DNA of 20,622 bases from Coleofasciculus sp. B1-GNL1-01 (GTDB lineage Bacteria > Cyanobacteriota > Cyanobacteriia > Cyanobacteriales > Coleofasciculaceae): NCBI GenBank assembly GCA_040220235.1, contig JAVJTO010000041.1; one strand, 5' to 3'. Below are positions 681-20,307 of this stretch, in pieces. Position numbers and translations under genes: made by a program. The number at the start of each line of letters is the position of its first letter. The first letter of the stretch is position 1. Under the pieces are notes generated by a model. That model did not search any database. It was not told the DNA's origin and was given only the letters and a program-made list of their open reading frames with translations.

Positions 681-1598
681 TTAATCAGCTTGACCCTTGC
701 TCGGATGCTTCTTGAAAAATGCCAGTAACCCCAACATAGTAAATCCTAACAAGGTAGAAGGTTCTGGCACAGACTCTACCTGAAAGTCTAAGAAAAATCG
801 ACCGGATGAAGCCAAAGGTGTATGACTATTTTCTTCGTTAACATCAACTAAGCGGAATTCGGCGGTGTAAGTCCCTAGTGGTGCTGATTTATCGGTATAA
901 AATGTGGGAGTGAATGAGAAGTTATCCCCAGAACCAATAATATAGCGATCGCCAATTGAGCTAAAGAGATCTGCGCCCGTAGAATCAGCAACCTGCAAAC
1001 CATCTGTAATCGATAGCAGTTCGAGCGCCACGGTAGCATCGCCAAGTAAGCCTTGCCAACGACCACCAGAGCTATTGTACAAAGCCTGCGCTCCTGAATC
1101 ATCGATGTCCAGCAAAGATGCTACAGGTTTCATCGTCAAGTTAGTATACTCCGATGAGGGTGTATCTTTGCTAATCAATTGATCGGCAAAAATCCCCTTT
1201 CCTGGCAGGAGGGTAATTGGGGGAAGTCCCGTATAAGTTTCGGGAATTCTGTTGTTAAAATTTGTATCAGAAATTTCGTTATTTAGGGGATCTCCTATGA
1301 AACTGTAACTCCCAATACCGTGGAAATGATTGTTAGTTTCGTCTAGTACTGGGTGTGCGAAGAGAAAGGTGAGCCGATTGTAGTTGGGGTTATTAACAAA
1401 TTGGCTGGGATCGGCTGGATTCGTGAAAATCTCGCGACCATCTACACCAATGTAATAGTGCTGATATTCAGGTTTTTCCTCTGGGCCGGGAATGGGTTCA
1501 GCATGTTGGGCGCGAGCCGTTTCCACTGACGTAAACGACGCAATCGCCGCCAAGGGGACAGCTAACAGGACACTAGTAACAGGCGTTGGTGAACGCAT
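681..1598 (-). CDS. All3515-like Zur-repressed PEP-CTERM surface protein
   Basis: Signal peptide (..TARA-QH), conserved-looking blocks NPNYNRLTFLFAH, HFHGIG and NNRIPE, and a C-terminal VPEPS + hydrophobic helix + basic tail. A Zur box lies directly upstream. Confidence 0.8.
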   Translation of the reverse strand: MRSPTPVTSVLLAVPLAAIASFTSVETARAQHAEPIPGPEEKPEYQHYYIGVDGREIFTNPADPSQFVNNPNYNRLTFLFAHPVLDETNNHFHGIGSYSFIGDPLNNEISDTNFNNRIPETYTGLPPITLLPGKGIFADQLISKDTPSSEYTNLTMKPVASLLDIDDSGAQALYNSSGGRWQGLLGDATVALELLSITDGLQVADSTGADLFSSIGDRYIIGSGDNFSFTPTFYTDKSAPLGTYTAEFRLVDVNEENSHTPLASSGRFFLDFQVESVPEPSTLLGFTMLGLLAFFKKHPSKGQAD

Positions 1599-1766: not shown

Positions 1767-3728
1767 CTAGAACGTGAAAGTAGTCCGAATTGTGCCAATT
1801 ACAACATCAGAATTCGTGGTTGTTTGGTTGGGTGCTGTTAGCCAAATCACGCCGGGTGTAATCGAGATATTATCCGTCAGTTGATATTTGTAAAAGGCTT
1901 CGATGTGGAATGGAATTGCTCGATTAGGAATCAGTTTAACAGCATCATTTGTCCCAACAAAGTCTTGAAGAGAAGGCGCAATTCCAATTCGGGTGGCGTA
2001 GGGAGGAACACCCACCACGATTCCGCCTAGATTTCCGCGTCTACCTAAATCGGGGAATGCCAGGGAAACCGCATAACTGAATACATCTGCACTCCCTGCT
2101 TCCTGTCCTGTGGGAGGCTGACCCTTAACGTTGGTATAAACAAACCAACCATTAACCGCAAACCCTGGTGTCACTCGCCACATCCCAGCGACACCAAACG
2201 AATCCGCCGAGTATCGAAACGAAGGGGACGCGAGTGTAATATTGACATTGGCTGAGGTTGTACCCACATCATTCAAAAAGAGTGGTAGTCCCGGCGAGTA
2301 GCTGTGATTGTAGGTTAGACCCAGCGCTATGTTGTCATTAGGTTGAAACGTTAACTGCGCTAATGCTCCATATCTGCCGTTAAACAAACCGCCCCCACGA
2401 TTATTGGCTGCACTCAAACTCTCTGGAATGTTTGCTTCCGCCGCTAGATACCCCAGACTGAGACTGACACTGGGGCTAAAACTGTAGGTTAACCCTGCAC
2501 CTGCACCCACACCAATGCGGTAAATCGGGCTGTACTGAGCAAAGGTAGAGATGGAACCCGTTCCTCCATCGTCATCTGCCCAAGTGCTGAAGGTGGTGGG
2601 GAGATAATCTGGATGTTCACCCAAATTGCCGAAAACAGCAACGCGCAGATTCTGCCCTACTGAGAATTTGTAGCTGAGAAGTCCTAATGCTACACTTCCC
2701 GGCTGTTCACTTGCCCAGATATTGAATGTCTGTCCTCCTTCCGGTGAGCTTCCCAGTATTCCTAATACACTCCCCAGGATGGGGTCAGCACCGTAGCGAA
2801 ATGCTCCCGGACGCTGGGGATGGGGAAGATTCCCTGATTCCAGACGGGTCTGTAAGACATCGTTACCCGTAAAGCTGGTGAGTAAGTTTAGGCGTACCCG
2901 ATTGGCAAATACCGTATTGTTGCGGGTGATGCCAACATTAAATGGGTCAGAATCTCCACTCAACACATCAGTTATCGCAAAAATCGCTTCACCGGATAGC
3001 TTCGTCGTAGTGGAAAACTGCTGAGTTTCCAGTTGGGTGGTTCGCGCTTCTAGGGTATCTACTCTACCTTGCAATGCCACCAGTTCGGTGCGAAATTCGT
3101 CAACCAAGCGTTGCAGGGTAGCTAAGTCTTCTTTGCCCACAACATTAGTGGTGTTTCCTGAAATTAAACGCTCGATTTGATTCATACAGGCATTTAACCC
3201 GGCGGCAAATTCGTAGCGCGTCATTGCCCGATTGCCTCGAAAGGTGCCGTCGGGATACCCTGCAATACAGCCGTAGCGTTCAACTAAGCTTCGCAAGGCT
3301 TCATAAGCCCAATCTGTGGGTTGAACATCGGATAGCTGAGATACAGAGGTGACTTGTTCCATTGCCCCATTAGGCGACTCTGCCTCAGAGAGATAGAGAG
3401 AGTCAACCGAGGGTACGTTGTCCGGTGTTACTTCCGGTGAAAAGACTTCAGATGGTGCTGCTGGTGCAACTGGGGTTTCTACTTCAGGATTGGTGATTTC
3501 TAACTCTGTGGAGGAAACAGTTAAGGAATCAGGCATCGACAGTTCGTGCACATCGAGACTCTTTGATTCCGTTAACGGAGACACAGACACGGGGAATTCT
3601 GTACTTTCTACACTCCCTTCTTCCCCCATCAGCACTTCTGGAGTCGTGATGTCGGCGCTGGCAGATAGCGCACAAATCGAAACTCCGAAAGCCGCACCCA
3701 CAAAGGAATTCCACAATATTTTTGGCAT
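1767..3728 (-). CDS. Cyanobacterial outer-membrane porin (SLH domain + OprB-type barrel; 'iron uptake porin' family)
   Basis: Signal peptide, QVTSVSQLSDVQPTDWAYEAL..LVERYGCIAGYPDGTFRGNRAMTRYEFAAGLNAC SLH block, coiled coil, QFSTTTKLSGE barrel start, and C-terminal GTIRTTFTF. Confidence 0.92.
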   Translation of the reverse strand: MPKILWNSFVGAAFGVSICALSASADITTPEVLMGEEGSVESTEFPVSVSPLTESKSLDVHELSMPDSLTVSSTELEITNPEVETPVAPAAPSEVFSPEVTPDNVPSVDSLYLSEAESPNGAMEQVTSVSQLSDVQPTDWAYEALRSLVERYGCIAGYPDGTFRGNRAMTRYEFAAGLNACMNQIERLISGNTTNVVGKEDLATLQRLVDEFRTELVALQGRVDTLEARTTQLETQQFSTTTKLSGEAIFAITDVLSGDSDPFNVGITRNNTVFANRVRLNLLTSFTGNDVLQTRLESGNLPHPQRPGAFRYGADPILGSVLGILGSSPEGGQTFNIWASEQPGSVALGLLSYKFSVGQNLRVAVFGNLGEHPDYLPTTFSTWADDDGGTGSISTFAQYSPIYRIGVGAGAGLTYSFSPSVSLSLGYLAAEANIPESLSAANNRGGGLFNGRYGALAQLTFQPNDNIALGLTYNHSYSPGLPLFLNDVGTTSANVNITLASPSFRYSADSFGVAGMWRVTPGFAVNGWFVYTNVKGQPPTGQEAGSADVFSYAVSLAFPDLGRRGNLGGIVVGVPPYATRIGIAPSLQDFVGTNDAVKLIPNRAIPFHIEAFYKYQLTDNISITPGVIWLTAPNQTTTNSDVVIGTIRTTFTF

Positions 3729-3885: not shown

Positions 3886-3900
3886 TGAGAATAATTATCA
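3886..3900. promoter_or_regulatory. Zur box between the divergent porin and lanM1 genes
   Basis: TGAGAATAATTATCA, 1 mismatch to consensus. It lies 82 nt before lanM1 and about 157 nt before the porin start. Confidence 0.75.
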
Positions 3901-3982: not shown

Positions 3983-6900
3983 ATGATGAGTCAAGACTGT
4001 TTTCAAGCTGCGAACTGGTATCAGGCGTTGAAATTGACCGAAAGGGTGGCATCTTTGGGGGTAAGTGGGCGTCAGATTGCTGAAAATGGGTATAACGCAG
4101 AACTGGCTGAACGGCGAATTCAACGCTGGCGATCGCAAAACCCCTTGACAAAATCCACTTTTTTTGCTATGAAGCTGGCTCAAGAGGGGATAACAGAACA
4201 AGAGTTTCGCTTTCTTTTAGGGGAACCCATGCGATCGCTCCCTCAGCGTTTTCCCACTATTCCAGAATGGCTCAGAGAAATTGAACAGGCTTTTTCTACT
4301 GCTGATCGTTCTAATTTAAAATCTGTTATTACGTCCGATAACTTTCTGTGTGCGATCGCCCCACTGATTCATCAAGGGATTAACCGCTTGCAGGCAGGAC
4401 TTCAAGCCATTGAAGTTAACCAAAACTCTAAAAACAATCCAGAAGATTTATCATCTCAACTGCCTTTCGATGCCAACACCATTTTATCTATATTATTGGC
4501 AGATTTACCCCAGCAGTTACTCTGGATGTTGACTCCGACGATGGTGCTAGAACTCAACGTAGCACGTCTGCAAGAGCTATTATCCGGTAAAACTGCCCAA
4601 GAACGATATGTCAGCTTTTTACAACGTCTCCAAGAGCAAGACGTCGCCATACAACTGTTACAAGACTATCCGGTTCTTGCTCGTCAACTTGCACTTTGTA
4701 TTCAGCAACACATTGAAGTAAAGCTCGAATTTATTCAACGGCTTTGTACAGATTGGGCAGCAATTTACACAGCTTTTAGTCCTGACAAAGAACCGGGGGT
4801 ATTGGAACAAGTTAATTGCAGCATCAGCGATAGCCATAATGGTGGGCGTTCTGTAATTATCGCTAAATTTCAGTCAGGCTTTAAGGTCGTCTATAAGCCA
4901 AAACCTTTAGCGGTAGATGTCCATTTCCAAGACCTTCTCTATTGGATTAATCAAAAGGCTGTTTTTCTGCCATTAAAACCTTTAAAGATTATTAACTGTG
5001 GAACTTATGGCTGGGTGGAATTTATTGAATCATCAAGTTGCAGCCATCGGTCGCAAATCGAGCGCTTTTATCAACGAATGGGGGGATACTTAGCGTTATT
5101 GTATGCACTTGATGCGACAGACTTTCACTTAGAAAACTTAATTGCATCGGGGGAACATCCCATGCCCATTGATTTGGAAACCCTATTCCAGCCTCGTAAA
5201 ATTGAACCCAATTCCCCCGAAGCAATTTTTATAGCAAATCAGCGAATGGCTCAGTCTGTGTTTCGCATTGGCTTACTGCCTCAGCGGTTATGGAGACAGG
5301 GGGAATCGGCGGGGATTGAAGTGAGTGGAATTGGCGCAACCGATGGTCAAATCATGCCAGAACGTATCCTTACTTTGGCGGAAAAAGGAACTGATGAAAT
5401 GCGAATGACTCGGCAGCAAATCCCCCTACCAGAAAGCAAAAATCGACCGCGTTTGCATGAAGCACAAGTGAATGTTTTAGACTACAAAGAGTCAATCATC
5501 ACCGGATTTACAACGATATATCAATTTTTGATGAAACACCAGGATGAATTATTAGCACAGGATGGACTTTTAACTCGCTTTGCCTCGGATGAAGTGCGTG
5601 TGGTTTTGCGTGAAAGTCGAACCTATGCTTTATTATTGCGAGAGAGTTTCCATCCGGATGTTTTACGGGATGCTTTAAATCGCGATCGCTTATTCGATCG
5701 CCTGTGGGTGGATGTGGAAAATCGCTCTTATCTGGCACAGCTAATCAAAGCAGAACAGGAATCATTATGGCAGGGAGACATTCCTAAATTCACCACCTAC
5801 CCCAATTCCCGCGAACTTAGGCTGAATGAACAAAAGCGAATTCCTGATTTTTTTGAGATATCAGGGATGGAACAGGTGCAGCATCGTATACAACAGTTGA
5901 ACCCAGAAGATTTAGCGTGGCAAGTGAGGTTAATCGAGAGTTCTCTTTCTACTCTAGGAATGAAAGCTGAGGCAGTAGAATGGGTAAGTGTGTCTTTGCC
6001 TGAAATTCAGACCATTCCTGAGCAAGAAACCTTAAATTCAGAACTTTTACAAACCGCTTGTGCGATTGCTGAACGCTTGGAGTCATTGGCGTTACGCGAT
6101 GGAGAAATGGCGAGTTGGATTGGCATCAAACTTATGGATAAACACCATTGGACTGTTGCGCCTTTAGGATGGAGTTTGTTTGATGGTATCCCTGGAATTG
6201 CCTTATTTTTTGCCTATTTGGGAGAAGTTACTCAAGAATCACGCTATACAAGACTGGCTCAACAAGCTTTCTTCACATTACAACGTCAAGTCGAGTACGA
6301 TCGCTCTATTATTACCTCCATTGGTGCCTTTGATGGGTGGGGAGGATTGATTTACACCCTGACGCATCTGGGGAGTTTGTGGCGTCAATCCGAATTGTTG
6401 AATCAAGCGTTGGAGTGGGTGGATATCCTGCCCAAATTGATTGAGAATGATAATCACCTGGATGTCATCGGCGGGGTTGCGGGTTGTATTGGGGTGTTGG
6501 TAGCTCTATATCACTGTATTCCGGATGAGCGGATTAAAGCCGTTGCGATTCAATGTGGCGATCGCATAATATCCCAAAATCAACCGATGGAACAGGGTAG
6601 AGCTTGGATGCCTGAAGACGGAACTAACGCCCTAACTGGATTTTCTCACGGTGCAGCAGGGATGGCTTGGGCGCTGTTGGAATTAGCCACATTAACCGGA
6701 GAGGAGCGTTTTCGCTCTTCAGCAGTTGCGGCAATAACTTATGAGCGCAGTCTCTTTTCTCCTGATGCTAAAAATTGGTTAAATTCGGCTGGAGAGCAAG
6801 ATACATTTAGCGTTGCCTGGAGTCATGGTGCCCCTGGAATTGGACTAGCACGATTACATTCCCTCAAACACTTGGACGACGCACAAATTCCCCTGGAGAT

Positions 6901-7228
6901 TAATACTGCCTTAGAAACAACGCTTGCTCATGGCTTTTGTGGAAATCACTCGTTGTGTAACGGGATGCTGGGCAATCTAGAATTTCTCTTACAAGCGAGT
7001 CAAACCCCTAATTATTCAACTTGGCATTCTTCAGTTACTCGTCTTACTGCCAGTATCCTAGAAAGCCTTCACCAGCAGGGTTGGCGTTGCGGACTACCAT
7101 TAGGAGTTGAAACACTAGGGTTAATGACTGGTTTGGCAGGCATTGGTTACGGATTGCTGCGTCTTGCTGCACCTCAAAAAATTCCTTCCATCTTGGTGCT
7201 TTCCCCTCCCAACACCATTTTAGACTGA
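3983..7228 (+). CDS. lanM: Class II lanthipeptide synthetase LanM (LanM1) with degenerate cyclase zinc site
   Basis: Dehydratase motifs SDSHNGG, VYKPK, DFHLENLIA, IDLETLF and GDIPKF are present. The LanC-like domain has GFSHGAAG and GLMTGLAGIGYGLLR, but WSHG and SLCNG replace WCHG and LCHG. Confidence 0.93.
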   Translation: MMSQDCFQAANWYQALKLTERVASLGVSGRQIAENGYNAELAERRIQRWRSQNPLTKSTFFAMKLAQEGITEQEFRFLLGEPMRSLPQRFPTIPEWLREIEQAFSTADRSNLKSVITSDNFLCAIAPLIHQGINRLQAGLQAIEVNQNSKNNPEDLSSQLPFDANTILSILLADLPQQLLWMLTPTMVLELNVARLQELLSGKTAQERYVSFLQRLQEQDVAIQLLQDYPVLARQLALCIQQHIEVKLEFIQRLCTDWAAIYTAFSPDKEPGVLEQVNCSISDSHNGGRSVIIAKFQSGFKVVYKPKPLAVDVHFQDLLYWINQKAVFLPLKPLKIINCGTYGWVEFIESSSCSHRSQIERFYQRMGGYLALLYALDATDFHLENLIASGEHPMPIDLETLFQPRKIEPNSPEAIFIANQRMAQSVFRIGLLPQRLWRQGESAGIEVSGIGATDGQIMPERILTLAEKGTDEMRMTRQQIPLPESKNRPRLHEAQVNVLDYKESIITGFTTIYQFLMKHQDELLAQDGLLTRFASDEVRVVLRESRTYALLLRESFHPDVLRDALNRDRLFDRLWVDVENRSYLAQLIKAEQESLWQGDIPKFTTYPNSRELRLNEQKRIPDFFEISGMEQVQHRIQQLNPEDLAWQVRLIESSLSTLGMKAEAVEWVSVSLPEIQTIPEQETLNSELLQTACAIAERLESLALRDGEMASWIGIKLMDKHHWTVAPLGWSLFDGIPGIALFFAYLGEVTQESRYTRLAQQAFFTLQRQVEYDRSIITSIGAFDGWGGLIYTLTHLGSLWRQSELLNQALEWVDILPKLIENDNHLDVIGGVAGCIGVLVALYHCIPDERIKAVAIQCGDRIISQNQPMEQGRAWMPEDGTNALTGFSHGAAGMAWALLELATLTGEERFRSSAVAAITYERSLFSPDAKNWLNSAGEQDTFSVAWSHGAPGIGLARLHSLKHLDDAQIPLEINTALETTLAHGFCGNHSLCNGMLGNLEFLLQASQTPNYSTWHSSVTRLTASILESLHQQGWRCGLPLGVETLGLMTGLAGIGYGLLRLAAPQKIPSILVLSPPNTILD

Positions 7229-7244
7229 TGGAACCAAATCCAAA

Positions 7245-9395
7245 ATGGGCATGAAATACCAGGTTGTTTTACAGCATAACGAAGAAGATTGTGGTGCGGC
7301 TTGTTTGGCTGCGATTGCTAAATATTATGGGCGTTTTTTTTCCATCAATCGGGTTCGGGAAGTGGCAGGAACAGGACCACTGGGTACTACATTACTCAAC
7401 CTCCGACAAGGGGCAAAAGCGCTTTTATTCGATGCACGAGGTGTTAAAGCACCCCTAGAACTGATCGATCAAAAAGTTGTGCCATTACCCGGAATTATCC
7501 ATTGGAAAGGGAATCACTGGGTTGTATTGTATGGACGCAAGGGAAACAAGTATGCTATAGCCGATCCAGCCGTGGGGATGCGCTATTTATCTCGCCAAGA
7601 ATTACTGTCTGGCTGGACTAATGGCGTGATGCTCTTACTAGAACCACGTTCTGACTTTAAAACCCAACCCGATGATCGAAACAAAGTTGGTAGTTTTAAT
7701 CGCTTCTTCCAACAATTCTGGAACTATCGGACTCTTCTAGCTGAAGCCTTATTACTAAACTTTGTTTTAGGGCTACTTTCGCTTACATCTCCATTCTTAC
7801 TGCAAATTCTTACTGATGATGTGCTGATTCGAGGGGATATTTACCTGCTCAATGGTGTCATCATTGCTGTTTTGGTAATGCATCTCATTAGCAGTATCTT
7901 TAAATTGATTCAATCCAACTTAGTGGCTCATTTTGCTCAACGGCTGGAATTAAATTTAGTCCTAGAATTTGGTCGTACTATTCTGAGTTTACCCCTGCCT
8001 TACTACGAATCTCATCGGAGTGGTGAAATTATTAGCCGCTTGCGAGACATTCAAGCCATTAATTAACTTATTTCTCAAGCCGGAATTATTCTACCGAGCC
8101 AATTTTTTATTGCCTTAGTTTCCCTGGGTTTCATGCTTGTTTACAGCCCTAAACTCTTGATGATAGCTTTAGCTATTGCTGTCATCATGACGCTATCTAC
8201 TGTAGTATTGCTGCCCAAGATTCAGCAAAAAATCCGCAATCTATTAGCCTTAATCGCAGAAAACCAAAGTTTGTTAATTGAAACCTTCAAAGGGGCAATC
8301 ACTCTGAAAACAAAAAATGCCGCCCCTCAATTTTTTGAAGAATTTCAGATTCGCTATGGACGACAAGCAACCCTCACCTTCAATACCCTACAGATGGCTA
8401 TTGTCAATAATGTATTTTCTGGGTTTGTCTCTCTCAGTGGTGAAACCATTCTGCTATGGTTTGGGAGTAGTTTAGTCTTTGCTCAAACCTTAAGCATCGG
8501 GCAATTGTTAGCGTTTAATGCAATGAACCGAAATTGCCTGATTTTAATTACAACAATTCTAAGTTTTGTGAATCAATTCGCCTTTACTCAAACTGCCATT
8601 CAGCGCTTGATGGATGTGATTGATTCTACACCTGAAGTTCAAGACACTACTCCCAAGCCGAGGGTCAAAATTCCTGGTAATGCCACGATTACCTGCACTC
8701 ATCTCAACTTTCATCACACAGGTAGAGTGGAGTTACTCCAAGACTTTTCTCTTACCATTCCTGGGGGAAAAGGGATTGCCTTAATTGGTAAATCTGGCTG
8801 CGGTAAAAGTACCCTAGCTAAACTAATTGCAGGGTTATATCTGCCCCAATCTGGTAATATTCGCCTTGATGATTACAATTTACAAGACCTCTCGCTCGAT
8901 TGCATTAGAAAGCAGATTATTCTAATTCCCCAAGAAGCTCACTTTTGGAGTCGCTCAATTATTGATAATCTTACTCTGGGAAATCCTCAGATTGGCTTTG
9001 AGGAAATTATTAAAGCCTGTCAGATTGCTCAAGCAGATGAATTTATTAGCAAACTTCCCAACAAATATCAAACTATTTTAGGAGAATTCGGCGCTAATCT
9101 TTCAGGAGGACAACGGCAACGATTAGCGATCGCATTAGGTATTGTCACTGACCCACCCATCTTGATTTTAGATGAATCTACAGCGAGTCTCGATCCAGTG
9201 AGTGAAACAGAAGTCCTCGATCGACTCCTCACCCACCGTCAAGGAAAAACCACAATTCTGATTAGTCATCGCCCCAGGGTTATCAACCGTGCCGATTGGA
9301 TTGTCTTCTTGGAAGAAGGACAGGTAAAACTTCAAGGAAGTCCAGAAGTTCTACGTTCCAAAGCTGGAGATCATCTGGATTTTTTGACTCCTTGA
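7245..9395 (+). pseudogene. lanT: C39 peptidase-containing ABC transporter (LanT/PCAT) split by one in-frame TAA at 8064-8066
   Basis: QHNEEDCGAAC, HWVV and IADP peptidase motifs, TM domain, Walker A GKSGCGKST, LSGGQRQR and ILDEST. ORFs 7245..8066 and 8133..9395 share a frame, and the gap reads AIN*LISQAGIILPSQFFIALVSLGF. Repair gives 716 aa. Confidence 0.88.
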
Positions 9396-9525
9396 TTCTT
9401 CTCGAAGTTTTTGGTCTTGTTTCAGTTGATGTAAGAACTGATTGACGGCTTTCATGCTGATTTGAGTCTGTGATAGTGCGATCGCATTTTGCAGATGATG
9501 TCCTCATTGAGATTAGCATCAGTTT

Positions 9526-9540
9526 TGATAATCATTATCA
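9526..9540. promoter_or_regulatory. Perfect Zur box (distal) upstream of lanA1
   Basis: TGATAATCATTATCA, an exact 7-1-7 palindrome. Confidence 0.88.
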
Positions 9541-9559
9541 TTCAGTTAGATAATAAATC

Positions 9560-9592
9560 AAAATGATAATGATTATCATTTTTAGCTATACT
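9560..9592 (+). promoter_or_regulatory. Perfect Zur box (proximal) over the -35 region of the lanA1 promoter
   Basis: AAAATGATAATGATTATCATTTT (9560-9582) is a perfect 11-1-11 palindrome. A candidate -10 TATACT is at 9587-9592. Confidence 0.88.
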
Positions 9593-9644: not shown

Positions 9645-9824
9645 ATGTCTAACGCCGATATTATCCGTGCGTGGAAGGATGAAGACTACCGCGCCAGTTT
9701 GAGCGATGAAGAGAAGGAACTGTTGCCAGAAAATCCAGTGGAAGTGATTGAACTGACGGATGAAGAGCTTTCCTCGGTGTCGGGGGGATGCACTCTCTGT
9801 GGCAATCCGTGGCACACTCTTTGA
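9645..9824 (+). CDS. lanA: Lanthipeptide precursor LanA1 (mersacidin/lichenicidin-type leader), 59 aa, core CTLCGNPWHTL
   Basis: GGAGG (9634-9638) precedes ATG 9645. The 48-aa leader DIIRAWKD..YR.SLS....LPENP...IELTDEELSSVSGG ends in a double-Gly site. Confidence 0.9.
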   Translation: MSNADIIRAWKDEDYRASLSDEEKELLPENPVEVIELTDEELSSVSGGCTLCGNPWHTL

Positions 9825-9894
9825 TGCCATTGCCGCGCTATGTACTCTACAGAAGTACTGATGCGATCAAGGCTGACTAATTTTGTTAAACTGT

Positions 9895-11282: not shown

Positions 11283-11440
11283 GTCTTTTATCAAACTAAC
11301 TCATTAAAGCGTTGCGCTCCTACCATTTGAGCAATGCACTGACCTAAACCCCCTTTGATATCACTTTTATTTGCTTCTACCGCGAAATCTCTCTGGCGCG
11401 AGAATGGCAAGCGATCGCATTGTGCCTGCTTTAACTAAAT

Positions 11441-14400
11441 TTAGTCTCGCTCGACTCTCTGTATAAAAGGAGGTGCTAACAGCAACACTGAGGGAACGCG
11501 CTGAGGTTCCGCTAATCGCAAGAGTCCGTAACCAATCCCTGCCAATCCCATCATTAACCCCGGTGTTTCAACACCCAATAGCGTTCCACAACGCCAGCCA
11601 TACTGATTGATACTTTCTAAAATCATGGCGGTAATGCGATGAATCTGCTCATCCCACTGCCCCTCTTTCAGGATTTCACGGGCTTGTAATAAGAGTTCTA
11701 GATTGCCCAAATCGCCGTGACAGAGGCAATGGTTTAAACCAAATCCCCGTTCGAGGGTGATGTTAATCGCCCTGTTAATTTCTGCACGAGTTTCGGCATC
11801 ATCCCTATGGTTGAGGGAACGCAAACGACTTAATCCTATTCCTGAGATGCCATTACACCAGATTGGCAATCCCTGACAGAACTGACTCCGTTCATAAGCA
11901 ATTCCAGCATCAGCCGTTTTCCGAAAACGTTCCTCATGGGTCAGTGCTGCTAATTCAAGCAATGCCCAAGCGATGCCTGCTGCACCATGGGCGAATCCTG
12001 TTGTTTGGAATTGTTGAGTATTGTGAATCCAACAGACGCCCTGTTCTTGGGGTTGAGCCGTGGCAATCAAGCGATCGCCACATTCAATTGCCGCAGCCAG
12101 AACGGCATCTGAGGGAAAGCAATGATAGAGGGCTAGCAAACTGGCGATACATCCAGCCGCACCACCAATTAAGTCAAAATACTCATCGGTTTCAATCATT
12201 CCCCGGATGGAATGGATCAACTCCTCCGCCTCGGTTAACCGTTCGGGTTGCTCCCACAGTACTCCCAAATGAGTCAGGGTATAAATTACCCCTCCCCACC
12301 CACTAAAGCCACCAATCGTCGGAATTAATGATTGACCCTGTTGAATTTGATGCTCTAGAGTTCTGAAAGCAGCTTGAGCGAGTTGAGTGTAGCGTTTTTC
12401 TTGGGTAATCGCTCCTAAATAGGCAAGAAATAAAGCTACCCCAGGCAAGCCATCGTAGAGACTCCAGGTTAAGGAAGCCAGCGTCCAATGGGAACCCCCT
12501 GCTAGAGTTAAACCCAGCCAAGTTGCATCCTCGTGACTACGGAGGGCTAATAACTCTAACCTGTCGCCAATCTGACAAGCCGCCGCTAGAAGTTGTTCGC
12601 GATCGCACCTTGTCTGCGGCTCAAATTGTGGGTATCCTTGCCAACCAACACCCTCCTGTGCCATCGCTAACGTGGAAACAGAAGCGCGGATAAACCAGGT
12701 TTGTCGCTCTAAATCCCGTTCATCTAACTGCTCAAGGCGATAGACTACCTGTTCCATTCCTGATCGCTCAAAAAAATTAGCGAAGATTTGGTTATTGCTG
12801 CCAACCACATCGCGGGAATTGGGACGAGTCGTAAACATGGGGATGTCCCCCTGCCATAACTCCTGCCGTTCCGTTGGGATAACCTTGGCAATATCCGGAA
12901 GATGCTGGACTTCAATCCAGAGCTTATCAAACCAGCGATCGCGCTCTAGGGCATTTCGCAACACATCGGGATGGAAACTCTCGGCTAGTAAGGCGGCGTA
13001 AGTCCGGGTGGGACGCAAAACGACACGTATCTCATCCTCAGCGAAGTGAGTTAAACGGTTCTGGAACTCATCGCGGTATTTTACCAAATCCTGATAAATG
13101 GTGGTAAATCCAGTAACAATCTCCTCGGCGTAATCTAAAACATTCACCTCAGTCTCCAGCAGATGCGGTTGATTCTGAGCGCCTTGCAGCAACCTTTGCT
13201 GGCGAACGACTCGCATTTCATCCGTAGCCACTCCTTCCCAAGACCGAATCCGTCGTGGTACAGTCTGACCGGGCTGACTACCGATGCCACTTTTGTCAAG
13301 TTCTTTTGATTGGTGACTTGTCCAACGACGATTTGGCAGTAATCCCACCCGCAAAACGGAGTAAGCCAGTTGTTGGCTTGCCATAAATACCGATTCTTTT
13401 AAAGGGGTGGTACTGATAGTGGTGCGGCGGGGGTGGAATAGGGATTCTAAGTCAATTAAAATAGGTTGCTCCCCGGCGGCAATTAAGTTTTCCGAATGAA
13501 AATCTGTGGCTTCTAGGGCATACAGCAACGCTAAATAGCCGCCAATTCGTTGATAAAAACGCTGAACCTCTTCTGGGGAGTGACAACTGTGGGCGGTGAC
13601 AAATTCTACCCATCCATAACTCCCACGATTGAGAATGTTGAGAGTTTTGAAGGCTGGGTGATTTCCTCGGTGATTGAGCCAAGTGAGGAGTTCCTGAAAA
13701 TGGACATCTATGGCTAGGGATTTGGGTTTATAAACAATCTGGAAGCCAGAACTAAATTTAGCGATCGCAACAGAACGCCCCCCTCGGTGACTATCCCCTG
13801 TATTCGGTTTTAGTTCTGTCAATACACCGGGATTGGTGTGGGGAGAAAACGTCGTGCAAATCTCATCCCAATCAGCACACAGACGCTGGATAAATTCCAG
13901 GCTAACCTTAACCCAGCGTTCAATACAAGTTACTAATTGTCTTGCCAAAACGGGATATTCTTGTAAGATACCAAGCATGACATCCCGTTGATAGATTCGT
14001 TCTAAGAAGCTTAAAAATCGCTCTCTCGGAGTATTGCCTGACAACAGCCCTTGCAAACGAGCAATGTTGAGTTCTAATATCAGGGTTTGGTTCAACATCT
14101 GGAGCAATGACTGGGGCAAATGCTGATAGAAAATTTCGTGTATTGTGTTGGGGTCAAAGGGGGTTTTGGATTGGGTTTTCTTGAGTAGGGATTGGATACC
14201 AACGTCTAGGCGCTCAATGCCTTGGCTAATTAGGGGTTCAATGGCATAGAGGAAACCCGATGACTCTTTACCGGGTGGTAACTGGGAAGGCGGGATGATT
14301 TTGATCTTGGGGGGTTCGGTACGGGAAAAGGCGTTCTCTAGTTCGTTTAACCAATCGGGTGGAGTCGGGGAACGCTGTTGTAATGCGGCTATCGATTCAC

Positions 14401-14629
14401 CTAAAAGGTAGCGAAAGGATTCAGGGGTGAGTCCATCAATTGCTAATCGTTGAGTATAGTAGGAATCTATGGGAAAAGGGGTTTGCGATCGCCATCGCTG
14501 CCATCGACGCTCTGCCAAAGCCTCGTCAAATTCCTGATCAATTGAAGGCTCCAGTGTGTCTAACGCTGCAATCCGTTCCCTCAATGTCAGTGCCTGATAC
14601 CAGGCTACTCCCTTTAACCCCTGATTCAT
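11441..14629 (-). CDS. lanM: Class II lanthipeptide synthetase LanM (LanM2), cyclase zinc ligands retained
   Basis: GDSHRGG, VYKPK, DFHSENLIA, IDLESLF, RVVLRPT and GDIPMF, then cyclase GFAHGAAG, WCNG and HCLCHG. ATG 14629 has a GGAG upstream; the alternative start is TTG 14644. Confidence 0.93.
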   Translation of the reverse strand: MNQGLKGVAWYQALTLRERIAALDTLEPSIDQEFDEALAERRWQRWRSQTPFPIDSYYTQRLAIDGLTPESFRYLLGESIAALQQRSPTPPDWLNELENAFSRTEPPKIKIIPPSQLPPGKESSGFLYAIEPLISQGIERLDVGIQSLLKKTQSKTPFDPNTIHEIFYQHLPQSLLQMLNQTLILELNIARLQGLLSGNTPRERFLSFLERIYQRDVMLGILQEYPVLARQLVTCIERWVKVSLEFIQRLCADWDEICTTFSPHTNPGVLTELKPNTGDSHRGGRSVAIAKFSSGFQIVYKPKSLAIDVHFQELLTWLNHRGNHPAFKTLNILNRGSYGWVEFVTAHSCHSPEEVQRFYQRIGGYLALLYALEATDFHSENLIAAGEQPILIDLESLFHPRRTTISTTPLKESVFMASQQLAYSVLRVGLLPNRRWTSHQSKELDKSGIGSQPGQTVPRRIRSWEGVATDEMRVVRQQRLLQGAQNQPHLLETEVNVLDYAEEIVTGFTTIYQDLVKYRDEFQNRLTHFAEDEIRVVLRPTRTYAALLAESFHPDVLRNALERDRWFDKLWIEVQHLPDIAKVIPTERQELWQGDIPMFTTRPNSRDVVGSNNQIFANFFERSGMEQVVYRLEQLDERDLERQTWFIRASVSTLAMAQEGVGWQGYPQFEPQTRCDREQLLAAACQIGDRLELLALRSHEDATWLGLTLAGGSHWTLASLTWSLYDGLPGVALFLAYLGAITQEKRYTQLAQAAFRTLEHQIQQGQSLIPTIGGFSGWGGVIYTLTHLGVLWEQPERLTEAEELIHSIRGMIETDEYFDLIGGAAGCIASLLALYHCFPSDAVLAAAIECGDRLIATAQPQEQGVCWIHNTQQFQTTGFAHGAAGIAWALLELAALTHEERFRKTADAGIAYERSQFCQGLPIWCNGISGIGLSRLRSLNHRDDAETRAEINRAINITLERGFGLNHCLCHGDLGNLELLLQAREILKEGQWDEQIHRITAMILESINQYGWRCGTLLGVETPGLMMGLAGIGYGLLRLAEPQRVPSVLLLAPPFIQRVERD

Positions 14630-14704
14630 CACGCTTTGCTCCAAAATCCTGCCTCAACCTATTCGTTATAATTAGTACTTGACGCTGATAATACATCACT
14701 AGTT

Positions 14705-14938
14705 TTACAAACTCAGGGTTGCTTCCCCACAATGTTCGCAATCGGTGTGGCAGGTTTCTTCATGAGACGTACCGTGCGCCAGCACGTTCAGCGCACCGCC
14801 AGCCATGGATGACATCTCTTCATCTGCCAGTTCAATCAATCCGGCTGGATTCTCTGGAAGCTGCGCCTTCTCAGCCTCACTCAAGCTTTCACGATAGTCT
14901 GTGTCTTTCCAAGCGCGGATGATGTCGATATTCGACAT
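14705..14938 (-). CDS. lanA: Lanthipeptide precursor LanA2, 77 aa, His/Cys/acid-rich core ALNVLAHGTSHEETCHTDCEHCGEATLSL
   Basis: AAGGAG precedes ATG 14938. The 48-aa leader is 34/48 identical to LanA1 by manual alignment and ends EMSSMAGG. It lies directly upstream of lanM2. Confidence 0.9.
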   Translation of the reverse strand: MSNIDIIRAWKDTDYRESLSEAEKAQLPENPAGLIELADEEMSSMAGGALNVLAHGTSHEETCHTDCEHCGEATLSL

Positions 14939-14981
14939 GAGATTCTCCTTTGGGTAAAACCCATGGTTTTGCTGTCTCCAG

Positions 14982-15016
14982 AGTATAAACAAAAATGAGA
15001 ATGATAACAATTATCA
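14982..15016 (-). promoter_or_regulatory. lanA2-lanM2 promoter with a Zur box over the -35 element
   Basis: Minus strand TTGTTA (15010-15005), 17 nt, TATACT (14987-14982). Box TGATAACAATTATCA (15002-15016) has 1 mismatch, with an offset weaker box at 14996-15010. Confidence 0.78.
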
Positions 15017-15129: not shown

Positions 15130-15138
15130 AGCCAGTGC

Positions 15139-16334: not shown

Positions 16335-16368
16335 TTGTCATCTGTGATTATAATGATTATCATTATCA
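16335..16368 (+). promoter_or_regulatory. znuA operon promoter overlapped by tandem Zur boxes
   Basis: TTGTCA (16335-16340), 17 nt, TATCAT (16358-16363). Boxes TTATAATGATTATCA (16348-16362) and TGATTATCATTATCA (16354-16368) each have 1 mismatch. Confidence 0.85.
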
Positions 16369-16424: not shown

Positions 16425-17468
16425 ATGCCAAATTATCGCCGTCTAGTTACCACAATCCTGGCGTTAGGAATCGTGTCTTTAGTCGGTTGTGGACAAACTC
16501 AAACGAATGAAACAACCGAATCGGCTCAATCTTCTGACTCTAACATCTCAGAGAACCAGCTTGACGTGGTTGTGAGTATTCCACCGCAAAAATATTTTGT
16601 CGAACGGATTGGTGGTGAATATGTCAATGTCACCGTCATGTTACCGCCTGGTGCGAGTCCAGCCACCTATGAACCCAAACCCCAACAGCTACAAAATTTA
16701 GCGGATGCAGAGGCGTATGCCCGCATCCAGGTTCCTTTTGAGAATGCCTGGTGGGAGCGCATTCGTTCTGGGAATCCGGAGATGAAAGTTGTGGATTTGA
16801 CCGAAGGAGTTAACCGAATGCCTATGGCGGCGGAACATTCCCATTCCGGTGAAGAACACCATCACCACAGTGACGCCGACGAACACCAGCATGATCAGGA
16901 GGCTAGTTCTCAAACCGAAACCGTAGCCAATCCCGATCCTCACATTTGGCTATCACCCCCCCTGGTTAAAGAACAAGCACAAACCATTTATGCAGCCCTT
17001 GTCGAACTTGACCCCAGCCGTCAACAGATTTATCAAGAGAACCTAAATGCCTTCATTGTTGACCTAGAGCAACTGGATCAAGACATTAAGCAAACCCTTT
17101 CTGGGGTTGAGAATCGAACCTTCATGGTCTTCCATCCGGCTTGGGGCTACTTTGCTCGTGCCTACAATTTGGAAATGGTTCCCATTGAAGTTGGAGGCAA
17201 TGAACCCAGTGCGGCAGAAATGTCCAAGCTGGTTTCTAAAGCTAAAGCAGACAATATTCAAGTTATTTTTGCTCAACCTCAATTTAGCACCAGGAACGCT
17301 AAAACAATTGCCAATGAAATTGGTGGAGAAGTGATTTTACTCGATCCACTGGCTGAAGACTGGATGAGCAATATGAGCAAAGTATCTAACACATTTAAAG
17401 ATGTTCTGGGTGATCCAACCGCCCTTTTAGTTGTCACCCCTCACCTTGTCGCTGTGATTAGCAAATAG
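16425..17468 (+). CDS. znuA: Zinc ABC transporter substrate-binding lipoprotein
   Basis: AAGGAG RBS, lipobox LVGC, PGASPATYEPKP, His-rich loop EHSHSGEEHHHHSDADEHQHD, DPHIWLSP and FHPAWGYFA. Confidence 0.9.
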   Translation: MPNYRRLVTTILALGIVSLVGCGQTQTNETTESAQSSDSNISENQLDVVVSIPPQKYFVERIGGEYVNVTVMLPPGASPATYEPKPQQLQNLADAEAYARIQVPFENAWWERIRSGNPEMKVVDLTEGVNRMPMAAEHSHSGEEHHHHSDADEHQHDQEASSQTETVANPDPHIWLSPPLVKEQAQTIYAALVELDPSRQQIYQENLNAFIVDLEQLDQDIKQTLSGVENRTFMVFHPAWGYFARAYNLEMVPIEVGGNEPSAAEMSKLVSKAKADNIQVIFAQPQFSTRNAKTIANEIGGEVILLDPLAEDWMSNMSKVSNTFKDVLGDPTALLVVTPHLVAVISK

Positions 17469-17601
17469 TCGCTCATTATTGGCTTTTTTTGCATCGAATG
17501 ACACTCAGCTTTTTGCCCCTATCGATTACTAATTTTATCATACCCATGTTTCCTGATGTTGCGCCATATCTGACCCATCCGGGCGATAGCAAAAGGGGTA
17601 T

Positions 17602-18423
17602 TTGTTGCCTAATTTAAAAGAGAGTAATGGTATCACTGTGGCACAATCAACTACATCTGAAGTCGTGATTACGATCGAAAACCTTTGGGCAGGATACGGT
17701 AAAGAACCGATTTTGCACGATATCAATCTTTCGGTCAATAAATTGGACTATATCGGTATCATTGGTTCAAATGGAGGCGGTAAGACTACCCTATTCAAGG
17801 TACTATTAGGATTATTGTCACCTCAACAGGGACGGGTGAGAATTCTCGGACGTTCGATTCGGCAAGGTCGTCGTTATATCGGCTATGTTCCACAGGTGAT
17901 GACATTTGACCGCAGTTTCCCCATTAATGTTTGGGATGTTGTGCGGATGGGACGTTTGGGCAAAGGTCGTTTATTGAGACATTTTAATCGTAAGGATGAT
18001 GAGAAGGTAGAACAGGCATTACAACAGGTAGACTTGCTGGATTTAAAAGATCGCCCGGTGAGTGAGCTTTCTGGCGGGCAGTGCCAACGAGTCTATATTG
18101 CTCGGGCGTTAGCAACAGAACCTCAGATTCTACTGCTTGATGAACCCACTACCAGTCTAGACAGTAAAGCCTCTACAGCCATCTATGAATTGCTGCGGCA
18201 ACTGAATGAATGTGTGACAATTTTGATAATTTCTCACGATATTGGCATGGTATCCTCTTACGTTAAAACAATCGGCTGTTTGAACCAACGGCTGTATTAC
18301 CACGGTGATAGTCAGGTGACGAATGAAATGCTAGAACAGACCTACGGAGAATCAGTAGAACCGGTGATTCACAATCGGTTTGTGCCGCGAACATTAGCCA
18401 CGCATCCGTCAAAATCGACCTAA
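17602..18423 (+). CDS. znuC: Zn/Mn ABC transporter ATP-binding subunit
   Basis: Walker A GSNGGGKTT, IGYVPQ, LSGGQCQR, LLLDEPT and ISHD. The true start may be GTG 17638. Confidence 0.9.
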   Translation: MLPNLKESNGITVAQSTTSEVVITIENLWAGYGKEPILHDINLSVNKLDYIGIIGSNGGGKTTLFKVLLGLLSPQQGRVRILGRSIRQGRRYIGYVPQVMTFDRSFPINVWDVVRMGRLGKGRLLRHFNRKDDEKVEQALQQVDLLDLKDRPVSELSGGQCQRVYIARALATEPQILLLDEPTTSLDSKASTAIYELLRQLNECVTILIISHDIGMVSSYVKTIGCLNQRLYYHGDSQVTNEMLEQTYGESVEPVIHNRFVPRTLATHPSKST

Positions 18424-18460
18424 CTCAAAACCTGAATAGCCGAGACCCAAGGAAATAATT

Positions 18461-19306
18461 TTGATTTCGCTTATGCTGGAAGTTATACAGCAAGAATTTA
18501 TGCAAAATGCCCTATTAGCTGGGCTGTTGATTAGCATTGCCAGTGGCATTATTGGCAGCTTTGTGGTAGTCAATCGGATTGTGTTTATCGCTGGAGGCAT
18601 TGCCCACGCCGCCTATGGGGGTGTGGGTATGGGATTTTTCTTGGGATTTAATCCAGTGCTAGGGGCAAGCGCCTTCAGTCTGATGGCGGCGTTGACAATG
18701 GGCTGGGTGCAGCGTAAAACTCAGTTGCGACAAGATACTGTCATTGGTATGTTATGGGCAATTGGTATGGCAATTGGGATAATTTTTGTTGATTTGACAC
18801 CGGGCTATACGGCAAATCTAAGGAGTTATTTATTTGGTAGTATTCTCTCTGTTCCTAGACGCGATCTCTGGATTATGCTGGCGCTAAATATAATGATCGT
18901 CATTTTGGTCGTGCTGTTTTACAAAGAGTTATTGGCGATCTCCTTTGACGAAACCTTTGCCACAGTGCGGAATGTACCCGTGAATGGGCTTTACCTGATG
19001 CTGATGGGAATTATTGCGCTGACGGTGGTGATGCTGATGCAGGTGGTGGGCGTAATTTTACTGATTGCCCTGCTGTCTATGCCTGCCGCGATCGCGAATC
19101 TGTATGTCAAGGACTTGAAGAAAATGATGCTACTGGCTAGTCTGCTGTGTATGATCTTTACCACAGTCGGATTGTGGCTTTCCTACGTCCTCAATTTTAC
19201 CTCTGGTGCCACGATTGTGCTGTGCGCCGCGATCGCTTATCTTGCCAGTTTGGGCATCAATTTTCTCCGGCGATACCGCCAAAGGGAAACCCGATTGTTT
19301 CAGTAG
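18461..19306 (+). CDS. znuB: Zn/Mn ABC transporter permease
   Basis: FMQNALLAG, GIAHAAYGG, YLFGSIL and ISFDETFA motifs of ABC-3 permeases; multi-TM. Confidence 0.9.
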   Translation: MISLMLEVIQQEFMQNALLAGLLISIASGIIGSFVVVNRIVFIAGGIAHAAYGGVGMGFFLGFNPVLGASAFSLMAALTMGWVQRKTQLRQDTVIGMLWAIGMAIGIIFVDLTPGYTANLRSYLFGSILSVPRRDLWIMLALNIMIVILVVLFYKELLAISFDETFATVRNVPVNGLYLMLMGIIALTVVMLMQVVGVILLIALLSMPAAIANLYVKDLKKMMLLASLLCMIFTTVGLWLSYVLNFTSGATIVLCAAIAYLASLGINFLRRYRQRETRLFQ

Positions 19307-19344
19307 AATCTTTCCCGTTTAATTTGTTAGGTTTTAGTTGATTT

Positions 19345-20307
19345 ATGATAGACACCGATAGCTTCCCAAAAAAACTACCTGTAACTGTCATTACAGGCTT
19401 CCTGGGCAGCGGTAAAACAACGCTGTTGAACTATATATTGCAGAATTTTGAAAATTATAAAGTTGCTGTTTTAGTCAACGAATTTGGCGATATCAACATT
19501 GACAGCCAGTTGTTAATCGCTGTTGAAGAAGACATGATTGAACTGACCAATGGCTGTATATGCTGCACGATTAACGATAATTTAGCGGATGCCGTGTATC
19601 GAGTTTTAGACCGCCAAGATCAAGTAGATTATTTGATTGTTGAAACAACAGGTGTTGCTGAGCCGATACCGATCGCGCTAACATTTTTAGGAACAGAACT
19701 GCGAGATCTGACACAATTCGACTCGATGATCACTGTTGTTGATGTAGAAACCTTTACGTCTGAAGGATTAAACAGCCATGTGGCTAACCTGCAACTCTTT
19801 TACGGAGACATAATCCTACTGAATAAGGTTGACTTAGTTTCAGAAGATCATGTTTCCCAGATAGAAGCTCACATTTGTTCTCTGAAAGAAGGTGCAAGAA
19901 TCATCCGATGTGAGTATGGTCAAGCTCCACTATCACTGATTTTAGATACTAGCTTGGCAGAGTCAGGTTCCTCTACGCAAGCATTGGCGAATTCAGACGC
20001 TAAACCATCAACACATCTGGCAAATGATGGGTTTATGGCAGTATCGTTTAAAGGAGATCGCCCTCTCTCTCTCAAAAAATTTCAACAATTTCTTGACTAT
20101 CAACTTCCGAATAATGTATTTCGCGCTAAAGGCGTTCTCTGGTTTGCCGAAAGCCCCAAGCGACATCTATTTCAACTGATTGGCAAGCGATTCACCATGG
20201 ATGATAGTGAATGGACAACAGCTCCTAAAAATGAACTGGTGTTGATTGGACGTAAACTTGAGGCTCTTTTGTTGATCCAAATGCTGAACAACTGTCTTAC
20301 CAAGTAA
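19345..20307 (+). CDS. COG0523 / CobW-family G3E GTPase (putative zinc metallochaperone)
   Basis: GFLGSGKTT, VNEFG, GCICC (CxCC), VETTG, NKVD and the CobW_C motif FRAKG. Confidence 0.92.
   Translation: MIDTDSFPKKLPVTVITGFLGSGKTTLLNYILQNFENYKVAVLVNEFGDINIDSQLLIAVEEDMIELTNGCICCTINDNLADAVYRVLDRQDQVDYLIVETTGVAEPIPIALTFLGTELRDLTQFDSMITVVDVETFTSEGLNSHVANLQLFYGDIILLNKVDLVSEDHVSQIEAHICSLKEGARIIRCEYGQAPLSLILDTSLAESGSSTQALANSDAKPSTHLANDGFMAVSFKGDRPLSLKKFQQFLDYQLPNNVFRAKGVLWFAESPKRHLFQLIGKRFTMDDSEWTTAPKNELVLIGRKLEALLLIQMLNNCLTK

Follow-up and report, generated by a model that had tools for sequence, protein, structure and literature searches.

Replacement of two cyclase zinc ligands in a cyanobacterial lineage of class II lanthipeptide synthetases with predicted Zur control

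Introduction

To our knowledge, zinc is considered indispensable for the lanthionine cyclases of classes I, II and IV. In the class II lanthipeptide synthetase (LanM) CylM, the zinc ligands are C875, C911 and H912, according to PMC11356792, and proteins that depart from such a site have been described in several settings. The metal-free class III cyclase ThurKC has Ser, Phe and Asp at the ligand positions (PMC10604976); the LanM-like protein OA858_24670 of Pseudanabaena galeata was found in silico to be without zinc ligands, next to a precursor without Cys (PMC11356792); the clostridial LanM homologue CA_C0082 is without zinc ligands and also without dehydratase residues (PMC10301443); and DUF4135 enzymes with an undefined triad have been noted in two cyanobacteria, in a report in which Zur is not mentioned (PMC11251773). 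A full-text literature search, with Zhang et al. 2012 outside its scope, turned up no publication that connects lanthipeptide synthetases with Zur or with a shortage of zinc, and the ZepA paper (PMC10957091) contains no mention of these enzymes. Here, we analyse LanM1, a class II synthetase encoded in a 20,622-nucleotide stretch of DNA from Coleofasciculus sp. B1-GNL1-01 (contig JAVJTO010000041.1 of assembly GCA_040220235.1; the whole stretch is referred to below as the window), in which Ser and Asn stand at two of the three zinc-ligand positions, next to candidate binding sites for the zinc regulator Zur. LanMs with such replacements are called ligand-lost in what follows.

Results

LanM1 is a complete class II synthetase with two replaced zinc ligands

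The gene, its cyclase domain and the residues around the zinc site lie in the window as follows.

3983..7228, plus strand: lanM1, class II lanthipeptide synthetase, an open frame of 1081 amino acids
6161..7195, plus strand: cyclase domain of the LanC-like type at residues 727-1071, matching positions 2-349 of the 350 in the Pfam PF05147 profile (E 3.3e-73)
6647..6649, plus strand: codon of His889, the catalytic His of GFSHG, present in 23/23 ligand-lost LanMs
6821..6823, plus strand: codon AGT of Ser947, at the first zinc-ligand position (Cys; CylM C875)
6956..6958, plus strand: codon of Cys992, the only one of the three zinc ligands still present (Cys in 21/23 clade members, Gly in the other 2)
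6959..6961, plus strand: codon AAC of Asn993, at the third zinc-ligand position (His; CylM H912)

Both domains of a class II LanM are present in one polypeptide, with DUF4135 (Pfam PF13575, E 7.9e-138) at residues 229-605 and LANC_like at residues 727-1071, and the protein scores 1027 bits against the TIGR03897 LanM profile, for which the cut-off is 304 bits. It aligns end to end with LicM2 (6st5) in a phmmer comparison (E 3.6e-139), where WSHGAPG of LanM1 stands over WCHGAPG and NHSLCNG over NHSLCHG. On CylM (5dzt), S947, C992 and N993 align with C875, C911 and H912, so that the Cys-Cys-His (or Cys-Cys-Cys) triad of class II enzymes is here Ser947/Cys992/Asn993; all 63 CCH-type rows counted in the LanM alignment read Cys/Cys/His. 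In the dehydratase domain, D380, H382, N385 and D397 align with CylM D347, H349, N352 and D364, which we take to be the dehydratase catalytic residues. The ligand codons of canonical relatives are TGT or TGC for Cys and CAC or CAT for His, and each LanM1 change is thus one base away from the canonical state.

These alignments and codons agree with what an initial annotation, made from the letters of the window, had described: Ser (AGT, 6821-6823) and Asn (AAC, 6959-6961) at ligand positions, each one nucleotide from the canonical codon, within an unbroken 1081-residue frame with intact dehydratase motifs. The GFSHG catalytic His that it listed as intact is indeed so, and its position is corrected here to His889 (6647-6649).

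LanM1 also has an extra Cys six residues before Cys992, Cys986 (6938-6940, in 'GFCGNHSLCNG'), which was gained in the window's sub-clade and is found in 5/23 ligand-lost LanMs. Irregular active sites of other kinds were seen in a distant ProcM-like enzyme (L022, G014:C245), where the ligand positions read Ala/Cys/Trp and Gln replaces the catalytic His, and in two otherwise canonical LanMs (P0035 and P0091), in which the catalytic His is replaced by Arg (GFSRG).

The ligand loss arose once and is shared by several cyanobacterial genera

A 93%-identical orthologue from another genus (G019, Allocoleopsis franciscana) reads 'WSYG' and 'LCNG' in an open frame of 1109 codons. Among 122 LanMs, comprising the 120 top-scoring database matches of the cyclase domain together with P0002 and P0003 of the Coleofasciculus genome, Ser occupies the first ligand position in 13, in the combinations Ser/Cys/Asn (11), Ser/Cys/Thr (1) and Ser/Gly/Asn (1). 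A scan of 185,579 species genomes (one per species) with back-translated motifs returned 12 loci, all cyanobacterial and all Ser-type, from Microcoleus, Coleofasciculus, Tychonema, Iningainema and other genera. The corresponding metagenome scan gave 11 stretches, of which seven carry the motifs, two hold lanM remnants beside a porin gene and two are short contigs without a LanM match. After removal of near-duplicates, 20 distinct ligand-lost loci were counted, with identities down to ~52%; Ser is encoded by AGT in each of the 19 loci checked, and Asn by AAC or AAT. The initial annotation had allowed that all orthologues might carry WCHG and CHG, and this is not so, as 20 distinct loci share the loss.

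In a FastTree phylogeny of 112 full-length LanMs, the 12 Ser-type rows (12/12) fall on one branch. With the ligand columns removed, IQ-TREE recovered first 20/20 and then 23/23 ligand-lost rows as a single clade, with a value of 100 in the Shimodaira-Hasegawa-like approximate likelihood ratio test (SH-aLRT); the outgroup consisted of ProcM-like Cys/Cys/Cys enzymes, and the rooting rests on their long branch. Five of the 1081 positions separate the 23 ligand-lost enzymes from 100 canonical LanMs (L450I, L852K, C947S, H993N and P1045L), and two of the five lie on the three ligand positions, for which simple arithmetic gives a rough chance of ~6e-5, a pattern beyond chance. These data show that the ligand loss arose once, through two single-base changes, and on balance they make it probable that LanM1 is a member of a distinct, old cyanobacterial lineage of class II synthetases from which the zinc site has been lost.

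The altered cyclase domain is under purifying selection

Simple pairwise Nei-Gojobori estimates of the ratio of nonsynonymous to synonymous substitution (dN/dS) for the cyclase domain gave 0.30 for the window and G019, and 0.08-0.43 across all 11 close pairs, compared with 0.10-0.27 for the DUF4135 domain in the 10 pairs where it was computable. At the amino-acid level, the ratio of cyclase to dehydratase divergence in the clade is 0.94 (interquartile range 0.84-1.05), and the same ratio in three ligand-bearing groups is 0.88, 1.10 and 1.09. H889, W946, N988, H989, G949 and G994 are retained in 23/23 ligand-lost LanMs, which also keep 92/128 of the canonical-invariant columns in the cyclase domain and 94/120 in DUF4135. 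The cyclase domain is thus under purifying selection, and its relative divergence is no faster than in ligand-bearing LanMs.

The proposal in the initial annotation that two hits on metal ligands point to selection, for which a dN/dS estimate on this domain had been suggested as a check, gains weight from these results: a deep clade is fixed for the altered state, with the domain under purifying selection, which indicates that the ligand changes were selected and did not result from chance or error.

Ligand-lost LanMs share a cassette with predicted Zur boxes

The genes and boxes of the lanM1 cassette, and the zinc genes that share the window, are listed here; no strand is assigned to the boxes.

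1767..3728, minus strand: OprB/SLH porin gene, divergent from lanM1 (NCBIfam 'iron uptake porin' NF033921, 523 bits)
3886..3900: Zur-box-like 15-mer with 1 mismatch, in the divergent oprB-lanM1 spacer, 83 base pairs (bp) before lanM1
7245..9395, plus strand: lanT, C39 peptidase and ABC exporter, with the frame interrupted by TAA (8064-8066)
9526..9578: a pair of exact Zur boxes, at 9526-9540 and 9564-9578, which lie 105 and 67 bp upstream of lanA1
9645..9824, plus strand: lanA1, precursor with core CTLCGNPWHTL and a leader ending in GG (mersacidin/lichenicidin-type leader, TIGR03898, E 5.7e-18)
16348..16368: a pair of Zur boxes that overlap each other, ahead of znuA
16425..20307, plus strand: znuA-znuC-znuB-cobW (COG0523), zinc uptake genes
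681..1598, minus strand: all3515/ZepA-family 'Zur-repressed PEP-CTERM protein' (NF040463, 289 bits, E 2.2e-86), with two overlapping Zur-like boxes upstream at 1626-1646

The window contains ten matches (at most 2 mismatches) to TGATAATNATTATCA, where 0.15 are expected. At a threshold of at most 1 mismatch, only 24 matches occur in the 8.66 Mb of the genome, and this 20.6-kb contig accounts for 7 of the 24. The box at 9526, an exact 15-mer, has the sequence given for alr3242 among the Anabaena Zur sites in S3 Table of PMC10957091. The zinc-starvation setting that the initial annotation had envisaged is therefore well founded, given these seven boxes, the znuACB-cobW genes and the all3515/ZepA-family gene, and the view that the window is a Zur island, with predicted Zur binding at its boxes, is supported.

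The same order of elements recurs in the ligand-lost loci: porin gene, Zur box, lanM-lanT, one or two Zur boxes, lanA. A Zur box lies at most 450 bp upstream of lanM in 18/19 assessable loci, and in the 19th, from Iningainema, a lanM box with 2 mismatches was found by eye. A divergent OprB-type porin gene is present in 18/18 loci with flanking sequence, lanT follows lanM in 19/19, and lanA is preceded by a Zur box in 18/18. Six loci additionally contain znuA/B/C, and two more contain cobW without znuA/B/C. As a control, 29 other LanM loci were inspected with 1.5-kb flanks; a box was found in four, which are exactly the four Ser-type loci, and in none of the remaining 25. WSHG/CNG is thus conserved across strains and tracks with Zur boxes (18/19 for lanM, 18/18 for lanA and 0/25 for the others), the very comparison of homologues that the initial annotation had recommended. 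Most copies are open: among 14 loci (the window, G019 and the 12 loci of the genome scan), lanM is an open frame of ~1000-1100 codons in 12 and lanT is open in 11. With biosynthesis, export and an outer-membrane component in one metal-linked cluster, the cassette has a metallophore-type layout.

Some lineages have lost the cassette, and in two metagenome contigs (L047 and L048) only a lanM remnant (residues 2-135 joined to 971-1076) and lanT fragments are left beside the porin gene and its Zur box. A homologue of the all3515/ZepA-family gene also flanks the porin gene in Iningainema (L039).

Precursor cores are rich in Cys and His

All precursors have a mersacidin/lichenicidin-type leader (TIGR03898) ending in Gly-Gly. 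Every core contains at least two Cys and a His, most having three or four Cys and one or two His, and all cores but one begin with Cys-Ser/Thr-(x)-Cys, the exception being that of the Ser/Gly/Asn lineage, which begins with C-C-C. The motif C-T-x-C-G-N-P-x-H-T is common to the window, G019, Iningainema and a set of Cys/Cys/His cassettes described below, Microcoleus/Tychonema-type cores read C-x-C-x4-C-x4-H-H, Coleofasciculus-type cores have four Cys and one His, and the spacing in G019 is C-x2-C-x4-H-x4-C. The Cys and His residues of the cores could be ring-forming residues, metal ligands, or both.

Ligand-bearing relatives suggest that Zur control came first

Four cassettes of another family (L069-L072; genomes G216, G218, G210 and G081) have a porin gene, a box and lanM-lanT-lanA in the same layout, and their LanMs carry Cys/Cys/His and keep Leu852 and Pro1045. 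These enzymes branch outside all other LanMs compared (outgroup root, long branch), and their cores, seen in the three of the four loci where lanA was found, start with C-T-T-C-G-N/D-P-x-H-T. A second ligand-bearing LanM is encoded in the window itself.

11441..15016, minus strand: lanM2 (11441-14644; Cys/Cys/His), lanA2 (14705-14938) and a Zur box (15002-15016), between lanA1 and znuA

LanM2 keeps all three ligands ('WCNG' and 'CLCHG'), and the LanA2 core, rich in His, Cys, Glu and Asp, is encoded 64 bp downstream of the box. Among the ligand-bearing LanMs in the tree, LanM2 stands closest to the lost clade, with an SH-aLRT value of 99 that falls to 69 once its own relatives are added. The P0123 search for LanM2-type orthologues covered 301 genomes of the phylum; apart from LanM2 itself (68%), no match exceeded 57%, but the search yielded two further Ser-type loci as well as the four Cys/Cys/His cassettes. 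A LanM2/LanA2-type pair in G138 (L073) adjoins ZnuA/ZnuB-like genes and a box. The Coleofasciculus genome has two Cys/Cys/His LanMs in all, namely LanM2, with its own precursor and box, and a copy on contig C49 without a box within 1.5 kb.

Since the sister cassettes combine the same core family with Cys/Cys/His enzymes, Zur control probably predates the ligand loss, judging from the predicted boxes. The ligand loss took place inside a Zur-linked lineage.

Other features of the zinc island

Two further genes of the window are listed for completeness.

15097-16152, plus strand: PEP-CTERM protein with HAF repeats, with a Zur box (15104-15118) near its start
10212-11294, minus strand: predicted membrane protein of 360 amino acids, between lanA1 and lanM2

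The HAF-repeat protein may be a further secreted product of the zinc island. The 360-residue membrane protein has no Pfam or NCBIfam match, and tblastn gave no match to it in the 12 cassettes of the genome scan or in the G019 stretch. A short open reading frame (ORF) at 11371-11466 (plus strand) matches the C-terminal end of a ~410-residue FAD/NAD-binding-type protein and looks like a rearrangement remnant; the protein is intact in G019 (L033) and at C23:45960-47195 of the Coleofasciculus genome, there behind an exact Zur box. Eleven further Zur-box sites of the genome were inspected, and only an FAD-type protein and the start of another SLH/porin gene were of note. A 15-mer with 2 mismatches inside lanM1, at 6442, was not read as a site, being a by-product of the coding sequence for E-N-D-N-H.

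Discussion

A zinc-independent synthetase of the zinc-starvation regulon

From the sequence evidence, we consider it somewhat probable that LanM1 is a zinc-independent LanM of the zinc-starvation (Zur) regulon whose cyclase domain no longer has a zinc site. The enzyme would be made only when zinc is scarce, a circumstance under which selection may have removed the zinc requirement. Its N-terminal domain would still dehydrate Ser and Thr of the LanA core, the cyclase domain would still bind that core, and thioether rings would still be closed without a metal, as in class III enzymes, which share Ser at the first ligand position. We tentatively prefer metal-free ring closure to a loss of cyclisation, which is possible but, to our minds, the less probable outcome. 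In its favour are the complete retention of the remaining active site, a constraint on the domain equal to that seen in ligand-bearing LanMs, the processing of the same core family by ligand-bearing sisters and the precedent of ThurKC. LanT would cut after Gly-Gly and export a short Cys/His-rich peptide that would probably aid zinc acquisition with the co-regulated porin and ZnuABC, a role suggested by the conserved coupling of the cassette to porin, exporter and ZnuABC.

A more far-reaching proposal, which we regard as rather doubtful, is that the cassette encodes a zincophore system based on a ribosomal peptide, which would make it the first such system. A short peptide, its ligands arranged as Cys-x2-Cys-x4-His(-x4-6-Cys) or Cys3His2, would then be de-repressed when zinc runs short and exported by LanT; it would capture zinc outside the cell and return via the co-regulated porin to ZnuABC. 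One lineage of the maturation enzyme would have freed itself from depending on the very metal that the pathway supplies, through removal of its own Cys/His zinc site, a set of ligands like those of the product.

Evidence to be set against zinc independence

Several observations weigh against a zinc-independent, Zur-controlled LanM1. Ala mutants of the LctM zinc ligands dehydrate their substrate without cyclising it (Paul et al. 2007, as cited in PMC11356792 and PMC10301443). All ligand-lost loci are kin, so that the box association amounts to one conserved event and not to 20 independent trials, and five Zur-box-linked LanMs, those of the four sister cassettes and LanM2, keep all their ligands, so that Zur control alone need not lead to the loss and zinc economy is not obligatory. 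Ligand positions drift inside the clade, where S/C/N is commonest and S/C/T, S/G/N and N/C/S also occur; this drift is consistent with the absence of a precise catalytic role at these positions. In the window/G019 pair, the dehydratase domain has only a third of the dN/dS of the cyclase domain. The regulator and the metal are also open to challenge, as the genome has six FUR-family genes and NCBIfam names the porin an 'iron uptake porin'.

To these must be added lesions in the cassette of this genome and its close relatives. The TAA at 8064-8066 interrupts lanT at a codon that encodes Gln in 16/17 other cassettes and reads CAA in contigs of three studies, and lanA1 has an 11-bp deletion relative to G019 (9815-9830 compared with L033), which causes a frameshift to an early stop and the loss of the fourth Cys. 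Contigs from three independent studies that cover 6587-9415 at ~99% identity carry an in-frame 693-bp deletion in lanM1 (5893 to 6587) and a further 87-bp deletion at 9415-9503. The shortened lanM1, without residues ~638-868, is the high-depth form in the three studies, the undeleted form being found in low-depth contigs of the same runs, and a variant of 850 amino acids (P0066) has the length expected from the 693-bp deletion and also carries WSHG/LCNG. In G019 (L033), the start of lanT is split by an insert of ~1.1 kb with a PIN/VapC-like gene; the codons for residues 23-60 are duplicated, and the downstream copy is without the catalytic-Cys region. The window's sub-lineage thus shows repeated recent erosion, while lanM1 itself and most other cassettes are intact. 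Decay, which the initial annotation had kept in view, does apply to the partners of lanM1 in this genome (the lanT nonsense codon and the lanA1 frameshift), but not to the ligand changes.

Alternative explanations

The alternative that survives best, which we nevertheless rate as unlikely, is the second option of the initial annotation; it accepts the link to Zur and holds that LanM1 only dehydrates: cyclisation would have been lost with the zinc site, the cyclase domain would serve as a peptide-binding scaffold for dehydration, and free Cys and His of the exported core would chelate zinc. This is how the LctM ligand mutants behave, dehydrating without cyclising (sources as above), and the zinc-free cyclase domain of CcaM is needed for dehydration and makes no rings (PMC10676384). 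The cores are rich in Cys and His in a pattern suited to metal binding, such as C-x2-C-x4-H-x4-C in G019, the ligand positions drift among S, N, T and G, and the variant without residues ~638-868 is the high-depth form in three studies. However, all other active-site residues, including the proton-donor His889, are kept in 23/23 enzymes, which is beyond the needs of a scaffold, and ligand-bearing LanMs of the four sister cassettes process the same core family, which makes a switch in product chemistry less parsimonious. Ser or Thr, moreover, lies 1-5 residues before Cys, like in ordinary lanthionine rings, and no LanM is needed for a linear Cys/His peptide.

We hold it improbable that the cassette is linked to iron, or to Fur-family control in general, instead of zinc, or that its product, released under metal stress, acts as an antimicrobial or a signal with no part in metal uptake. 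The family name of the porin and the six FUR-family genes would fit the former, and the leader, which is that of the mersacidin/lichenicidin lantibiotic family, would fit the latter. Against these readings, the 15-mer equals listed Anabaena Zur sites (PMC10957091) and precedes znuA and the ZepA-family gene in the window, and six loci have znuACB-cobW next to the cassette, while two others have cobW there.

A rebuilt metal site, in which Cys992, together with Cys986 of the window's sub-clade, would be completed by ligands from the Cys/His-rich substrate, or would hold another metal, seems very unlikely. Cys992 is kept in 21/23 enzymes, Cys986 was gained in 5/23 and the substrates carry a Cys-Cys-His set; yet Cys986 is missing in 18/23, Cys992 is Gly in one lineage, and Ser and Asn are poor zinc ligands by general coordination chemistry.

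Strain-specific decay or sequencing error, with the two substitutions as the first neutral hits on a dying lanM1, can be dismissed with near certainty, since the single-base distance of each change from the canonical codon, the damaged lanT and lanA1 of the window and the 693-bp lanM1 deletion of close relatives are outweighed by the same two changes in 20 distinct loci of one clade (~52% identity at the lowest) with lanM open in 12/14, by dN/dS values of 0.08-0.43, and by the restriction of the lanT and lanA1 lesions to the window's sub-lineage, lanT being intact in 11/14 loci.

Implications

In a class II enzyme that is otherwise unchanged, two of three zinc ligands have given way to the most conservative replacements possible, and this state has long been maintained. 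As the sister cassettes keep intact ligands and act on nearly the same substrate, metal-free cyclisation in the LanC fold becomes directly testable. The predicted boxes place a lanthipeptide pathway inside the zinc-starvation regulon; if zinc independence is true, Zur-driven zinc sparing would extend from housekeeping proteins to a natural-product enzyme, with a hint of a peptide-based route of zinc acquisition in filamentous cyanobacteria.

Comparison with known systems

LanM1 shares with LicM2, CylM and LctM the two-domain architecture, the dehydratase residues, the catalytic His, a precursor with a GG leader and a C39-ABC exporter. In LctM, the ligand replacements are laboratory mutants, whereas in the LanM1 lineage they are natural (Ser and Asn) and conserved. 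The nearest relatives outside the clade are ordinary Cys/Cys/His LanMs of 55-60% identity.

ThurKC, which works without zinc, has a LanC fold and, like LanM1, a Ser at the first ligand position. In ThurKC, however, the Asp/His acid-base pair is replaced as well, Phe and Asp occupy the other ligand positions, and the cyclase is joined to a kinase and a lyase instead of DUF4135. The NF038151 (LanKC) profile gives LanM1 83.9 bits, over the cyclase part only, compared with a cut-off of 575 bits, so that the enzyme falls outside class III. Compared with ThurKC, the loss in LanM1 is a recent, minimal change within class II.

LanMbC/CcaM of the dehydrazole pathway is similar in that DUF4135 is fused to a cyclase domain, which in CcaM is zinc-free and still required for activity (PMC10676384) and in LanM1 is putatively zinc-free. 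It differs in its class III-like cyclase, its leaderless azole-containing cores and its link to YcaO; no YcaO family match was found among the 12 window ORFs scanned. In OA858_24670 of P. galeata and in CA_C0082, all three ligands are absent, whereas LanM1 keeps one and has Cys-rich precursors and a Zur-linked cassette. None of the earlier LanM-like proteins without zinc ligands is otherwise canonical with two conservative replacements, and none is tied to Zur.

The initial annotation had likened LanM1 to zinc-sparing C-minus ribosomal paralogues. The likeness holds for the combination of a Zur box with zinc-ligand loss (background in PMC10957091), but the analogy is imperfect: LanM1 is probably no back-up for a zinc-bearing twin and has its own substrate and exporter, and with a dedicated precursor the replacement of such a twin is unlikely. 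Opine-type zincophore operons likewise combine Zur-regulated biosynthesis with an exporter and an outer-membrane channel; in contrast to these systems, the putative metallophore of the ligand-lost cassettes would be a ribosomal peptide, and the channel is a porin instead of a TonB-dependent transporter.

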